A stretch of DNA of 64,000 nucleotides from a virus. The notes below the pieces were generated by a model that was not told the DNA's origin, searched no databases, and worked only from the letters and a program-made list of their open reading frames with translations. Positions 3,556 through 30,013 of the stretch are shown piece by piece. The stretch lies in the IMG/VR virus record IMGVR_UViG_3300045988_088194. One strand, given 5' to 3'. Numbering within the stretch: position 1 is the stretch's first letter; the number at the start of each line of letters is the position of its first letter. The position numbers were made by a program, and so were the translations under genes.

Positions 3556-4965
3556 ATGTCTAAGTTGAATCCAACCATTAAGCCAACATCTAAATTTACA
3601 GATGAAAGACTTGCTGGAGGTAGTGGTGCTCTTGCTGCTAAGCAGTCAAACATTGCTCTCCTTAAAAGACTCACCTTGGCTAATCTTCTTTGGGAAGATG
3701 CTGCCTATTGTGATGGCAAGAAGATTGCTGAAGAGATTGAAAGGCTCATACCTCTGTGTAGTGCAGAAGATGTATATACTGTTGCTTTGGCAGCAAGAAC
3801 TCTACAGAAACTCAGGCACACACCTTTGTTTCTGGCATCTGAAATGTGCAAATACCCTGAACACAGGCTATTTGTAAGAGACTTACTGCCAAAGATTATA
3901 ACAAGGGCAGATATGCTGACTGACTTCCTCTCTATATACTGGAAAGAAGAAAAGAAGCCACTGGCTAATCAGGCAAAGAAAGGACTTGCAGCAGCATTTC
4001 ATAACTTCAATGCTTATAAGTTTGCAAAGTATGACAGAGATGCTGCAATAAAACTCAGAGATGTAATGTTTCTTGTTCACCCAAGACCTTGTGATGAAAA
4101 GGAAGCAGAACTCTTCAAGATGATTGCTTCAAGAACTCTTCCTGTACCTGAAACTTGGGAAACAATGCTCTCTGCTGGTAAAGATAAAAAAGAAACCTGG
4201 ACTAAACTTATCACTGAAGATAAGATTGGAGGTTTAGCTTTCTTGAGAAATCTTAAAAACATGAGGGAAGCTGGTGTAGACAAGAAAGTAATAAAATATG
4301 GCTTTGAAAGTCTTAAGGCTTCAATGCTGTTGCCTATGAATTTCTTGCAAGCAGCCAGAATGAATCCTGAGTTTGAGAGGGATATAGAAGATGCTATGAT
4401 AACTTCATGGTCCAATCTTCCTAAAATCCCTGGTAGGACTCTGTTCATACTTGATGCTTCTGGTTCTATGGAGTGGGCTGAAATCTCAAAAAAGTCCAAA
4501 CTCACAAGGTTTGATGCTGCAAAGGCTATGGCTATGCTTGCTGCAAACCAGTGTGAAGACTTTGAGTTGGTGGTAACTGCTGGTGATGACTATGCCAGAA
4601 AGCATAAATCAGAAGTAATCAAATATCCTTCAAAGGGATTCAACCTTCTAAAGCAGATAGATGAAGCAAAGAAGAGGGTTGGAGGTGGAGGAATCTTCAC
4701 AAGACAATGTCTTGAGTGGTCAAGAGAACAGTTTACTGGAGAGTTTGACAGAATAATCATATTCTCAGACTCACAGGACTGTGACTACCCTGAGAAGAGA
4801 GTTCCAAAGCCTTTTGGAAAACACAACTACATCTGTGATGTATCATCTGAACTGCATGGTGTGAACTATAGGGGTGCTTGGGATGCTGAAATAAGTGGCT
4901 TCTCAGAGCATTTCCTAACTTTCATAGCAGCATATGAAGGTATTGAGAATACTTTTAATGAATGA
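3556..4965 (+). CDS. TROVE (Ro60/Rsr-like) domain protein with C-terminal vWA domain
   Basis: N-terminal AGGSGA...LFLASE...ITRADMLTDF...AYKFAKYDRDAAIKLRDVMFLVHPRP matches the TROVE pattern (..yqlaKY...lRDvlrl.HPkP). The C-terminus has a vWA MIDAS motif, LFILDASGSM, then VVTAGDD and IIIFSDSQD. Confidence 0.75.
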   Translation: MSKLNPTIKPTSKFTDERLAGGSGALAAKQSNIALLKRLTLANLLWEDAAYCDGKKIAEEIERLIPLCSAEDVYTVALAARTLQKLRHTPLFLASEMCKYPEHRLFVRDLLPKIITRADMLTDFLSIYWKEEKKPLANQAKKGLAAAFHNFNAYKFAKYDRDAAIKLRDVMFLVHPRPCDEKEAELFKMIASRTLPVPETWETMLSAGKDKKETWTKLITEDKIGGLAFLRNLKNMREAGVDKKVIKYGFESLKASMLLPMNFLQAARMNPEFERDIEDAMITSWSNLPKIPGRTLFILDASGSMEWAEISKKSKLTRFDAAKAMAMLAANQCEDFELVVTAGDDYARKHKSEVIKYPSKGFNLLKQIDEAKKRVGGGGIFTRQCLEWSREQFTGEFDRIIIFSDSQDCDYPEKRVPKPFGKHNYICDVSSELHGVNYRGAWDAEISGFSEHFLTFIAAYEGIENTFNE

Positions 4966-7559: not shown

Positions 7560-7571
7560 TTCAATATAAAC

Positions 7572-7696
7572 TTCCCTGTAGCTCAATTGGTAGAGCATGT
7601 ATAGAACTGTGAAGAATGTTCCCTAATTGTGGTGATGTTTACAGTTACTTCAGATTTGTAATCTCAGGGTTCTTGGTTCAAGTCCAAGCAGGGAAG
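7572..7696 (+). tRNA. tRNA-Thr (anticodon TGT) interrupted by a 52-nt intervening sequence
   Basis: Acceptor TTCCCTG/CAGGGAA, D arm GCTC-AATTGGTA-GAGC and T arm CTTGG-TTCAAGT-CCAAG. Removing 7600-7651 gives the anticodon arm TGAGA-TTTGTAA-TCTCA and a 73-nt canonical tRNA. Confidence 0.75.
7600..7651 (+). other. 52-nt intervening sequence in tRNA-Thr (between positions 28 and 29)
   Basis: TATAG-[AACTGTGAA]-24 nt-[TTTACAGTT]-ACTTC, a 9-bp hairpin. Homologous to 8810-8864. Confidence 0.65.
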
Positions 7697-8377: not shown

Positions 8378-8785
8378 GGGGGTGTTTTGGTTTTGATTAC
8401 ACTCTATTTGGTAGTACCTTATGCAGTAGATGGGCAGTCTACTATAAAAGAGCCCAAAACAATTAAATGCTAACAAAGTTAGAAAATCAGTTAGAAGCCT
8501 TGTAGATTATATTAAATCTGCTATGCAGGCACCAGCAATTTCAGCTTATGCTGTTGCTGCCTAACAAAAGGCTTTAGTATTTGAGCCTTAATCAAGTACT
8601 TGGTGGAAGATGGGTGGATACCCAAATATGACTGCATGGCCTTGTAATTAGCAGAGGAAGAAGGAGTCAAGGGACGGTTTAATGGGACAGATTTCCATCT
8701 ATAGTAATAATCTGTCATCCTAAGCATATAAATAAAGGTATTATTGAAGGTTTGTAAGACACAGGTTCGAGTCCTGTCACCTCCA
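8378..8785 (+). ncRNA. ssrA: tmRNA (transfer-messenger RNA)
   Basis: - 5' end: GGGGGTGTTTTGGTTTTGA.
- 3' end: ACAGG-TTCGAGT-CCTGT-CACCTCC-A.
- Together these form a tRNA-Ala-like acceptor with G3-U70.
- CCTAAGCATATA box near the 3' domain.
- Internal tag frame: GCT ATG CAG GCA CCA GCA ATT TCA GCT TAT GCT GTT GCT GCC TAA (8520-8564), ending ..AYAVAA. Confidence 0.85.
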
Positions 8786-8794
8786 CTAATAAAT

Positions 8795-8922
8795 GGGGAA
8801 GTAGCATAATAAAAAACTCTTAAGCTTTTACTTCTGAAGAGATAGTGTTATTGAGAGTTACTTCAGGTTAATGCATTAGTTTCATAAGCTAAAGATTGTT
8901 TGTTCAAATCAAACCTTCCCCA
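8795..8922 (+). tRNA. tRNA-Met/Ile2-type (anticodon CAT) interrupted by a 55-nt intervening sequence in the D-loop; CCA encoded at 8923-8925
   Basis: Acceptor GGGGAAG/CTTCCCC, D stem GCAT (8804-8807) / ATGC (8871-8874) separated by 63 nt, anticodon arm TTAGT-TTCATAA-GCTAA and T arm GTTTG-TTCAAAT-CAAAC. Confidence 0.75.
8810..8864 (+). other. 55-nt intervening sequence in the tRNA-Met D-loop
   Basis: TAAAA-[AACTCTTAA]-27 nt-[TTGAGAGTT]-ACTTC. Removal leaves the D-loop AAAGGTTA. Boundaries were set by alignment with 7600-7651. Confidence 0.6.
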
Positions 8923-8958
8923 CCATAGAACAAGGCAGTAATAATAATAAGGGTGCTG

Positions 8959-8990
8959 ACCAGGTTCTCAAGGACACTTCAAAATAAGGT
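8959..8990 (+). terminator. rho-independent terminator after the RNA gene array
   Basis: AAGGACAC-loop-GTGTCCTT followed by TTTATTT. Confidence 0.7.
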
Positions 8991-9026
8991 GTCCTTTTTA
9001 TTTGTAAATCATTAAAATCTTATATT

Positions 9027-11148: not shown

Positions 11149-12306
11149 ATGGAAATAAAGATTGTATTGGGGCTTCTCTTTGGAGATGAAGGTAAGGGTA
11201 ACACAGTTCAGTGGCTCTGCAAGAAAGCCTTGGAAGAAGGTAAAAGACCTTGTGTAGTGCGTTTTTCAGGAGGTCCTCAGGCAGGACATACTGTAAGGCA
11301 TAATGGTATTACACATGTATGTTCTTCCTATGGCTCTGGTGTTCTTCTTGGAGTTCCTACACTGTATGTAGGAGGTCTTATTGACCCTCTATGTATATGG
11401 AATGAGAAGAAATCATTAGAAGAGAAAGGAGTGACGGTACCTCCTATCTATATAGGTGGAGAGGTTCCCCTGATAACTCCTTATGATGTAGCAGACCAAC
11501 TTGAGTGGTCTAAAGACCACCCTAACAGAACTTGTGGAAAGGGAGTAATGTCTGCTGTCTTGAGACAGAAAACCCGTCTAAGAGATAGATGTGCAGAGGC
11601 AGCAGACTTTTCTTCAAAGTCTTTTATTGAATATAAGTTAGAGCATATAAGAAAATTCTATGCTGAAGAAGGAATAACTGCTGACAAAGAGGTTGTCAAA
11701 GATTGGACAAAGGCAGGGTTGAACCTATGTAAGGACTTCTTCAAGTACAATATAGAGGATTTTGATGTTCTTATCTTTGAGGGAACTCAAGGACTTCTGT
11801 TAGATTCTGAATGTGGATTCTATCCTTATGTAACTTCAACTAAGGTAGGGCTCAATGGTGTCCCTAAAGAGTATCTTAAAGGTGCTGAAATATACCTTGT
11901 AACAAGGACTTATCTTACAAGACATGGAGAGATGGGACCACTTGAGAGGCAGTGGTTTGAGGGGAGAGAGAAGGAAGTACCTACTGATAAGTTAGAGACT
12001 AATGTCTTCAATGAACATCAGGGAGAGTTCCTTACTGCAAAGTATTATCCAGAACCTTACAAATATGCTGTACAAAGGCACTGTCTTGACAACATGCAGA
12101 AGAGGTATAACCTCACGATGAATCTTGTAGTTACTCATACTGATGTAGACTATTCTGAAGCTGGTGTATGTTTCCCTAAAGGAGACTGCTCTTTCTTTAT
12201 AAATAGTATATCAGGAACTCTTAAAGAGTTTCTTGTTCTACAGAACATTTATACCTCAGATAATCCTAACTCAAACTTTGAACTGTATGACACAAGAATT
12301 AACTGA
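11149..12306 (+). CDS. adenylosuccinate synthetase family protein (PurA/PurZ-like)
   Basis: N-terminal P-loop LLFGDEGKGNTVQW and the RFSGGPQAGHT motif are PurA-family signatures. At 385 aa it is shorter than typical bacterial PurA. Confidence 0.75.
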   Translation: MEIKIVLGLLFGDEGKGNTVQWLCKKALEEGKRPCVVRFSGGPQAGHTVRHNGITHVCSSYGSGVLLGVPTLYVGGLIDPLCIWNEKKSLEEKGVTVPPIYIGGEVPLITPYDVADQLEWSKDHPNRTCGKGVMSAVLRQKTRLRDRCAEAADFSSKSFIEYKLEHIRKFYAEEGITADKEVVKDWTKAGLNLCKDFFKYNIEDFDVLIFEGTQGLLLDSECGFYPYVTSTKVGLNGVPKEYLKGAEIYLVTRTYLTRHGEMGPLERQWFEGREKEVPTDKLETNVFNEHQGEFLTAKYYPEPYKYAVQRHCLDNMQKRYNLTMNLVVTHTDVDYSEAGVCFPKGDCSFFINSISGTLKEFLVLQNIYTSDNPNSNFELYDTRIN

Positions 12307-29340: not shown

Positions 29341-29825
29341 GATATGCAGATGCTAAAGTAGTATTCTCTGAAGTCCCTGATGAAATCACTCTTGCAGTGA
29401 GTATCTCAGGATGTCCTGGTACATGTGAAGGATGTCACTCCCCTTGGCTTAGAGAAGATAAGGGGGAAGAGCTTGATAAGACATCACTACATAAACTTAT
29501 AGAGGATAACCCTGGAATATCATGTATCTGTCTTATGGGAGGAGACCAGAATACAGCTTATCTTATGACTATGTTCCATTGGCTGAAGACCAAACATCCT
29601 GAACTCAAGACAGCATGGTATAGTGGATTGGATAAACCTGATGATACCAGCATACTCAAGTATCTTGATTATCTGAAGGTTGGACCCTATAGAAAGAATT
29701 TAGGTCCTTTGAATAGCCCTACCACTAATCAGAGATTCTATAAGATAATACATACTTCTGTACCTTCTACACTGTTAGTAGACCAAACACATCTATTTTG
29801 GAAAAAAGATTCCTCAGAAAAGTAA
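29337..29825 (+). CDS. nrdG: anaerobic RNR activating protein (radical SAM)
   Basis: CPGTCEGC (CxxxCxxC) cluster motif. Overlaps the nrdD stop. Confidence 0.85.
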   Translation: MRYADAKVVFSEVPDEITLAVSISGCPGTCEGCHSPWLREDKGEELDKTSLHKLIEDNPGISCICLMGGDQNTAYLMTMFHWLKTKHPELKTAWYSGLDKPDDTSILKYLDYLKVGPYRKNLGPLNSPTTNQRFYKIIHTSVPSTLLVDQTHLFWKKDSSEK

Positions 29826-30013
29826 TTGGGGAGAAGACATTCCCAAGATGCCATTATACAAGAAAGAAGCACAGATGGAAGCCTAAAGTTCCTTATGTCT
29901 CTATGCAAGCAGCTGAACTCTTTATTGAAGAGAGAAAGTTAGAGAATTATGAGGCTTACAAATGTCCTATATGTGGTAAATGGCATATTGGATTTCATAA
30001 AAGAGAAGAGTAG
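29798..30013 (+). CDS. small basic zinc-finger-like protein
   Basis: ..C-H...CPICGKWH pattern. Overlaps the nrdG 3' end by 28 nt. Confidence 0.4.
   Translation: MEKRFLRKVIGEKTFPRCHYTRKKHRWKPKVPYVSMQAAELFIEERKLENYEAYKCPICGKWHIGFHKREE

Follow-up and report, generated by a model that had tools for sequence, protein, structure and literature searches.

The window examined here, the whole 64,000-nucleotide stretch of DNA from the IMG/VR virus record IMGVR_UViG_3300045988_088194, contains a complete one-piece transfer-messenger RNA (tmRNA) gene, ssrA, whose internal reading frame most likely encodes a 31-residue tag. The crAss-like phages, to which we assign this sequence from its gene content, are the most abundant viruses of the human gut, and their takeover of translation in Bacteroides is poorly understood. 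We consider it likely that the gene, carried by a crAss-like phage whose hosts are probably Bacteroidales, specifies a standard one-piece tmRNA that is functional, and that it would work by the tagging mechanism set out below. Phage tmRNAs are already known, an annotated crAss-like example among them; what stands out in this case is the long, conserved tag.

Anatomy, conservation and phage residence of the tmRNA gene

ARAGORN calls a one-piece tmRNA on the plus strand at 8378-8786, the sole one in the window. The Rfam tmRNA family RF00023 matches 8378-8788 over the whole length of its model (1-374) with 82 bits against a gathering threshold of 47 (E 2.8e-30), a score far above chance. The agreement between these searches, which are or cover the checks that it had proposed, bears out the original prediction, made from the sequence alone, that a tmRNA lies here. 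Its structural claims were equally sound: the 5' end GGGGGTG pairs with the 3' end CACCTCC (8378-8384 with 8778-8784) and includes G3·U70, the alanine identity pair; the T arm (8761-8777) is present; and the conserved box CCTAAGCATATA at 8719-8730 aligns with the consensus GACUAAGCAUGUA. The discriminator A is position 8785 and CCA is unencoded, the 3' end reading A-CTA.

Since blastn of the tmRNA gave no match among 50,697 GenBank phage records, relatives were found through DNA pattern scans and through loci anchored on the TROVE (Ro60-like) protein gene. The first viral pattern scan returned one relative only. In all, the same gene was recovered on four IMG/VR contigs (L001, L003, L004 and L005) and on eight human-gut metagenome contigs (L287-L294), with an identical copy on the 98.5-kb human-gut contig behind L291. 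Structure and coding were analysed with ten distinct tmRNA sequences (alignment A3).

The structure considered comprises the acceptor stem, helix 2, the pseudoknots PK1 and PK2, a 3-bp core at the stop codon and the T arm, 63 pairs altogether. Across the ten sequences, 97.8% of the 630 cells form standard pairs, a share that drops to 39-49% once the partners are shifted by one to three columns. Compensatory double changes occur in six pairs: four of the five in the T arm, one in PK1 and one in helix 2. The seven acceptor pairs are unchanged throughout, pair 3 being G·U in all ten, and the 25 pairs of helix 2 are 99-100% paired. Stem b of PK1 is fully paired, its compensatory pair (56/77) being U-A in six sequences and G-C in four. 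The 8-bp stem of PK2 is likewise 100% paired, two of its pairs switching solely between A-U and G·U, so that the changes there are one-sided. In the distal 123 nt, minimum free energy (MFE) folding gives hairpins; this region exists in two versions differing by a 52-nt block, which are not comparable by covariation. As for the tRNA-like fold and the pseudoknots, the failure of which latter the original prediction had named as evidence against it, the tRNA-like domain and PK1 are both formed, and these are the elements of a tmRNA that matter most.

The genes around the tmRNA are those of a phage, as had been claimed. Large open reading frames (ORFs) of the window match DNA polymerase A, NrdD, a replicative helicase, a PurZ-like adenylosuccinate synthetase, a virion structural protein and a TROVE/Ro60-like protein, and one ORF of 3507 aa encodes a protein resembling virion RNA polymerases. 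The DNA polymerase is 71% identical in amino acid sequence to those of the Bacteroides phages PhiCrAssBcn and cr106_1, and the gene order around TROVE follows that of crAss001, with an SPFH protein, a helicase and others in the same sequence. The standard genetic code gives long ORFs, and there is thus no recoding. These gene matches place the window among the crAss-like phages (Crassvirales, Steigviridae-like), in a lineage outside the GenBank phage set. Its cultured relatives infect Bacteroides, and its own host is probably a member of the Bacteroidales. The tmRNA itself has a phage-like GC content of 38.9%, against a median of 52% in 44 cellular tmRNAs, and it occupies the same locus, flanked by phage genes, on at least 12 independent crAss-like contigs.

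The tag and its resume codon

ARAGORN reads the tag as ANKVRKSVRSLVDYIKSAMQAPAISAYAVAA, with gene positions 92-187 as its coding part, and from the sequence we regard this 31-residue peptide, resuming at GCT 8469, as the most likely product. The original prediction had preferred GCT 8520, in the same frame, and had flagged that choice as uncertain; ARAGORN, the Rfam alignment and the upstream context all point to 8469 instead. Its account of the tag therefore stands in part. The frame does end GCT TAT GCT GTT GCT GCC TAA, with the stop at 8562-8564, and the terminal AYAVAA is correct, but the length was not, the peptide proposed being the C-terminal 14 of the 31 residues. The description of the tag as divergent also holds, as it differs from host-type tags, though its C-terminus is host-like.

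The usual distance from PK1 to the resume codon is about 10-15 nt. GCT 8469 sits 13 nt past PK1, and GCT 8520 sits 64 nt past it. The sequence 5' of 8469, UAAAU|GCU, agrees with the consensus at -5, -4, -3 and -1; among cellular tmRNAs U(-5) is found in 40 of 44 and A(-4) in all 44, and each is found in 51 of 52 viral ones. These two positions correspond to U85 and A86 of the Escherichia coli tmRNA, which set the frame (PMC2481249). The Rfam alignment also places the consensus resume region GCaAACgA on 8469.

No frame other than the one starting at 8469 is open, and this frame stays so in all ten relatives. Eight point changes and one 3-nt indel separate the relatives within it. Four of the eight fall at third positions and are synonymous (K6, Y14, I24 and A28), three at first positions are conservative (S7A, I24V and V29I), and the single second-position change, Y>F, lies beside the 3-nt deletion. 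Codons 1-17 form the least variable stretch of the whole tmRNA, with 3 of 51 columns varying. The pattern of substitution fits a coding sequence, the events being few and all in the same direction. The tag is kept in every relative, with synonymous or conservative changes only.

Resumption of the same tmRNA at GCT 8520, which would yield the 14-residue tag AMQAPAISAYAVAA and leave the upstream 51 nt as structural RNA only, seems to us very unlikely. This codon shares the frame of 8469 and follows ...UUAAAUCU, which has an A at -4, and the shorter tag would be closer to the usual length. The helix-5 columns of Rfam also fall just 5' of it, on the hairpin GTAGAT/ATCTGC at 8502-8523, a placement inside the tag that we rejected as a long-tag artefact. 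Apart from its distance from PK1, however, its upstream sequence AAUCU has A(-5) and U(-3) off consensus (U(-5) in 91 of 96 tmRNAs, A or G(-3) in 93 of 96), and in E. coli the U85A mutation compromises selection of the frame (PMC2481249). Two of the three changes in codons 1-17 are synonymous third-position ones in a stretch that would then be non-coding, and the frame stays open from 8469 in every relative.

The tag resuming at 8469 is longer than any of 96 sampled tags, which have nine residues in 38 of 44 cellular tmRNAs and range from 8 to 28 residues in viral ones (n=52). An in-frame 12-nt tandem duplication at 8478-8501 (GTTAGAAAATCA/GTTAGAAGCCTT, encoding VRKS/VRSL) suggests that it grew by duplication. 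At its C-terminus, YAVAA (YAIAA or FAVAA in relatives) matches the host pattern [YF]A[LVIM]AA, so that tagged products would probably still be sent to host proteases and degraded. A second scan, of IMG/VR with GTAAGACNNNGGTTCGANNCC, found at least about 50 viral tmRNAs with the same GAUU...GUAAGAC helix 2a; among the matches listed, many tags have 21-28 residues and end in ADYAVAA. Long, idiosyncratic tags with a canonical hydrophobic end thus look like a general trait of phage tmRNAs.

Origin and proposed function

The sequence GGGGNTGNNNTGGTTTTGA, from the 5' end of the tmRNA, was scanned over one genome per species of bacteria and archaea and gave more than 120 matches. Among those examined, 44 were tmRNA 5' ends, and the titled ones came almost all from Bacteroidales or other Bacteroidota; as this cellular set was selected by the pattern, the 5' identity is not itself evidence, and the taxonomic skew is. 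The 44 are 370-413 nt long and carry tags such as GENNYALAA, GNNNYALAA, GETNYALAA and ANNNYALAA. In a Bacteroidales metagenome-assembled genome (MAG), L104, the first 19 nt and the acceptor sequence are exactly those of the window tmRNA. Outside the tRNA-like domain, no similarity to the 44 sampled cellular tmRNAs was detectable. A resemblance confined to the tRNA-like domain, taken with the difference in GC content, is consistent with a gene that was acquired long ago from a Bacteroidota host and has since spent a long time in phages. The T-loop intron subsite of some relatives (see below) supports a link to a Bacteroidia host.

Rescue of ribosomes is the default function that we infer from this anatomy, and the steps that follow, from charging to a benefit for the phage, are proposed on the same basis. 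The tmRNA would share a transcript with the neighbouring tRNA-type genes, and host nucleases would trim both of its ends. Because CCA is unencoded, the host CCA-adding enzyme would supply it, and host alanyl-tRNA synthetase (AlaRS) would charge the RNA with alanine via G3·U70. The RNA would then bind SmpB and EF-Tu, presumably those of the host since no phage smpB was found in the window, and its Bacteroidales-like tRNA-like domain would allow this use of host factors. On ribosomes stalled on broken or non-stop mRNAs, translation would resume at GCU 8469, add the tag and end at UAA, releasing the ribosome. The phage would gain in that ribosomes stay available when mRNA is cut or when the host tmRNA supply fails. 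The putative link to RNA-targeting defence drawn in the original prediction is reasonable. No HicA or other RNase domain was found in the 20 ORFs scanned around the RNA block. The SmpB search of the window (tblastn with the E. coli and Bacillus subtilis proteins) gave a best E of 0.049 over 14 aa, and the 68 GenBank phage records that have SmpB matches include no crAss-like phage.

Several points weigh against this interpretation. Helix 5 usually holds and presents the stop codon of a tmRNA, and here the helix around the stop codon is weakly supported, with an invariant 3-bp core and outer pairs that break in several relatives. The relatives resemble one another closely, with a mean column identity of 86%, and few events therefore underlie the coding signal and the covariation. 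The comparison of the resume codon with the consensus is partly circular, as ARAGORN picks resume codons by their upstream context. The smpB search covered 64 kb of a genome of about 98 kb. Finally, the closest relative by TROVE identity, L003 (15755-16165), has a non-canonical T-loop (TTCGAGT -> GGCAGAG) and receives no ARAGORN call, which means that canonical tRNA-like function is not kept in every copy. In L003 the mRNA and pseudoknot body is identical bar one substitution, and both halves of the tRNA-like domain have been replaced coordinately, with the D-loop TGG changed to TAG and helix 2a compensated; recombination, escape or decay could each account for this copy.

This retained body with an aberrant T-loop and D-loop is one reason to consider a decoy, an RNA by which the phage would shut down host trans-translation, either by titrating the SmpB of the host or by occupying stalled ribosomes. 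A precedent has been proposed in the mini-tmRNA of mycobacteriophage DS6A (PMC4131195, PMC11915505), which is phage-borne like the window gene and inhibits trans-translation, and with no phage SmpB found in the window the RNA must compete for that of the host. The DS6A RNA, however, consists of a tRNA-like domain only, without tag frame or pseudoknots, and such a domain is all that a decoy needs, whereas here conservation extends to PK1, the resume context, a coding-like frame of 31 codons, a degron-like C-terminus and the stop codon. We therefore give the decoy little credence. A mere passenger, that is, an imprecisely excised fragment of host ssrA, a partial copy of the attP type, assembly contamination or a functionless decaying pseudogene, is the least credible explanation: ssrA is indeed a common integration site whose fragments occur in prophages (PMC9004378), and the gene is patchy among crAss-like phages, but it is full length and not a 3' fragment, has a phage-like GC content, lacks cellular similarity outside the tRNA-like domain, keeps compensatory changes and the same locus on the independent contigs described above, and in four relatives carries a group I intron whose splice boundaries would rebuild the T-loop.

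Returning to a tmRNA that functions in tagging, the 22 extra N-terminal residues of the tag are phage-specific and strongly conserved. It is conceivable, if improbable, that this basic amphipathic extension, NKVRKSVRSLVDYIKSAMQAPA, is a phage-specific functional module that reprogrammes trans-translation, acting with the Ro60-like protein and tRNA-scaffolded RNAs as an island of counter-defence against RNA damage. If so, the extension could give truncated proteins another fate, through a different adaptor or protease, sequestration or protection.

Whatever the role of the extension, a whole subgroup of crAss-like phages carries its own tmRNA, ameliorated to phage base composition, with tags of 8-31 residues and sometimes interrupted by a group I intron. 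Such genes also sit beside tRNA arrays and a Ro60-like gene, which suggests that ribosome rescue and RNA quality control recur as an accessory function in these phages. Annotation pipelines should expect such genes, some copies of which are missed by ARAGORN or unannotated in GenBank, and the tag offers a handle for mass-spectrometric detection of phage-driven tagging. Understanding of the tmRNA mechanism itself is unchanged by the window gene.

Known tmRNAs, neighbouring genes and relatives

The nearest cellular counterpart is the one-piece SsrA (RF00023) of Bacteroidales and other Bacteroidota, which shares with the window gene the G3·U70 stem, the 5' motif GGGG-TG---TGGTTTTGA, the GGTTCGAGTCC T-loop, PK1 followed by a UA-N3-G resume context, the tag end given above and, in most copies, an unencoded CCA. 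It differs in its tag of nine residues (G/A-x-N-N-YALAA) and in helix 2a (GACAGC...UUUGGAC against GAUUAC...GUAAGAC in the window), and it shows no similarity to the pseudoknots or mRNA region of this virus-encoded RNA of lower GC content (39% against 52%).

Among crAss-like phages, GenBank annotates "transfer-messenger RNA, SsrA" at 29657-29960 of cr106_1 (MT774378, Mahstovirus faecalis, about 100 kb), and a copy 97.6% identical to it, with the same DNTYRVAA type of tag, lies in Kehishuvirus 'tikkala' (OQ198717.1, 87750-88041), which is cultured on B. cellulosilyticus; of the tmRNA family of the window, by contrast, no isolate is known. Both resemble the window in phage order and family group, in a tRNA-rich TROVE block, in the GAUU...GUAAGAC helix 2a and in having no SmpB match. 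The cr106_1 tmRNA is nevertheless only 304 nt long, has the 8-residue tag DNTYRVAA and lies upstream of TROVE, whereas that of the window lies downstream, and blastn aligns only 34 nt of the two. The 'tikkala' stretch is unannotated as RNA and lies under two 'hypothetical protein' coding sequences; a further copy related to cr106_1, in cr128_1 (MT774392, 7824-8253), is also not annotated as RNA in GenBank. Distant crAss-like contigs have other tmRNAs near TROVE, with tags including DNTYRVAA, GNNSFVPVYDAAVARIAA, DNTIQFVPDYSRAEVRLAA and GNTINFVPDYSRAEIRLVA, and crAss001 has no tmRNA near its TROVE gene. ARAGORN gives odd tags in three contigs (ASGGLC in L024 8496-8815 and L045 7218-7538, AEPHLLGNRKVYSHKQRFLA in L010 3639-3946); these resume codons are probably miscalled or the copies tag-degenerate. 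In the literature searched, we found no discussion of crAss-like tmRNAs, only mentions in methods sections.

Phage tmRNAs have been known since the mycobacteriophages of the Bxz1 type and Bacillus phage G (PMC4131195), and have been reported in huge phages (PMC7162821). ARAGORN calls exist for 402 of 18,146 phage genomes, given as 2.3% (PMC9004378); with these, the roughly 100-kb cr106_1 and the many IMG/VR crAss-like contigs, the earlier statement that only some large phages carry tmRNAs does not stand. Like that of the window, the tmRNAs of the Bxz1 group, phage G, huge phages and Melnitz and the pelagiphages are virus-encoded and presumed to sustain translation (PMC4131195, PMC7162821, PMC9004378). 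They belong to different host phyla and phage families, and 22 of the 52 sampled viral tmRNAs have tags of 21-28 residues, compared with 31 residues of basic character here. Some huge phages also encode SmpB, which was not found in the 64-kb window, and the Melnitz/pelagiphage tmRNA is two-piece, permuted and riboswitch-linked, unlike the one-piece gene of the window.

Table 1. Features of the tmRNA gene and its surroundings in the window.
Feature	Position	Strand	Details
Complete one-piece tmRNA (ssrA) gene	8378..8786	+	ARAGORN; Rfam RF00023; identical copy on human-gut contig
Acceptor stem, 5' strand GGGGGTG	8378..8384	+	Pairs with CACCTCC 8778-8784, including G3·U70
D-loop analogue TTTTGGTTTTGA	8385..8396	+	GG-bearing; first 19 nt of gene as in Bacteroidales tmRNA L104
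Helix 2, 5' strand	8397..8424	+	Partner 8724-8757; 25 pairs
Pseudoknot PK1, AGTAGA/TCTACT interleaved with TGGGC/GCCCA	8425..8456	+	H-type; 10-sequence alignment
Tag reading frame	8469..8564	+	Resume codon GCT 8469-8471, 31 sense codons, TAA 8562-8564
Pseudoknot PK2, GGCT/AGCC interleaved with AGTATTTG/CAAGTACT	8570..8600	+	10-sequence alignment
Distal variable region (PK3/PK4 position)	8601..8723	+	MFE hairpins, without covariation
T arm ACAGG/TTCGAGT/CCTGT	8761..8777	+	Compensatory changes among relatives
tRNA-like gene	8795..8924	+	Acceptor GGGGAAG/CTTCCCC; anticodon loop TTCATAA (CAT); encoded CCA; 9 nt after tmRNA
TROVE/Ro60-like RNA-binding protein gene	3556..4965	+	PHROG 850 E 8.5e-35; Pfam TROVE E 7e-14; 68% aa identity to crAss001 gp96
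Terminator-like hairpin and T run	8970..8996	+	Downstream of tmRNA/tRNA-like pair; 1 site against 1.7 expected by chance (weak)

The surroundings of the tmRNA are as originally described (Table 1): a CAT-loop tRNA-like gene with an insert in its D-loop, the interrupted tRNA-Met of the prediction, follows after 9 nt, and the TROVE gene lies in the same block rich in RNA genes, as context and not as part of the tmRNA. The tmRNA and this tRNA-like gene are probably co-transcribed. A sigma-70 promoter scan was uninformative, giving 16 sites against 10.9 expected, and neither Bacteroides nor crAss-like phages use promoters of that type. Further along, the PurZ-like ORF (11149-12306) matches PHROG 1211, '2-aminooxy adenylosuccinate synthetase' (E 1e-41), and Pfam Adenylsucc_synt, which may hint at 2-aminoadenine (Z) DNA in this phage.

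The insertion in the D-loop of the tRNA-like gene at 8795-8924 is a conserved, structured RNA module of about 55 nt, ending in GAGTTACTTCA, and it accounts for the "interruption" of the tRNA-Met-like gene (module end GAGUUACUUCA). A second tRNA-like gene, at 7571-7696, has acceptor halves that pair across the module insertion in the same way. The RNA next to the tmRNA has a partial Rfam tRNA match of 23.5 bits, and neither gene is called at threshold by ARAGORN or Rfam. Two analogous genes lie just downstream of TROVE in crAss001 (L002 6084-6227 and 6339-6480).

Within the window the module occurs at 8810-8865 and 7597-7652, with further copies of its motif at 1116, 7342 and 7487, all on the plus strand; four exact copies of GAGTTACTTCA and one near-exact copy are present in 64 kb, compared with about 0.03 exact copies expected. 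RNAalifold folds 14 instances from the window and crAss-like relatives into a two-stem hairpin in which compensatory changes affect 8 of 13 pairs, and was used because simply searching for a 5' partner to the GAGTT stem proved too permissive. The module sits in the D-loop of tRNA-like genes or replaces their anticodon arm, and every crAss-like TROVE locus searched has two to four copies of the motif, always on the TROVE strand. Neither the module nor the neighbouring tRNA-like RNAs match an Rfam family, YrlA and Y RNA included. The module may serve as a ligand of Ro60, in analogy to a Y RNA, or as a processing signal, or it may be a 'middle promoter' motif; Drobysheva et al. reportedly described a motif of the last kind upstream of tRNA genes. 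The conservation in these tRNA-like RNAs does not correspond to the published Ro-binding motif GNCGAAN0-1G (PMC4201824).

The tmRNA family itself occurs in a 411-nt form and in a form of 355-359 nt, the latter (L005, L001, L288, L292 and others) lacking a block of about 52 nt at 8661-8712. Its variants are mosaic, with PK1, tag, distal and T-arm types recombining freely across contigs. In L004 (16915-17763), L287, L289 and L294 the T-loop contains a group I intron of 694-849 nt (Rfam RF00028, 76 bits). Its boundaries are U|...G|, after GGTT (the second loop base), and splicing would rebuild the GGTTCGAGTCC T-loop. These four share the TψC-loop group I intron with the intron-form tmRNA genes described from bacterial genomes (PMC11915505), whereas they lie in phage contigs and the window copy is intronless. 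The subsite in question, T-loop intron subsite 3, has been reported solely for tmRNA genes of the class Bacteroidia (PMC11915505). In the AT-rich inserts of the longer introns, the opposite strand may hold a homing endonuclease gene.

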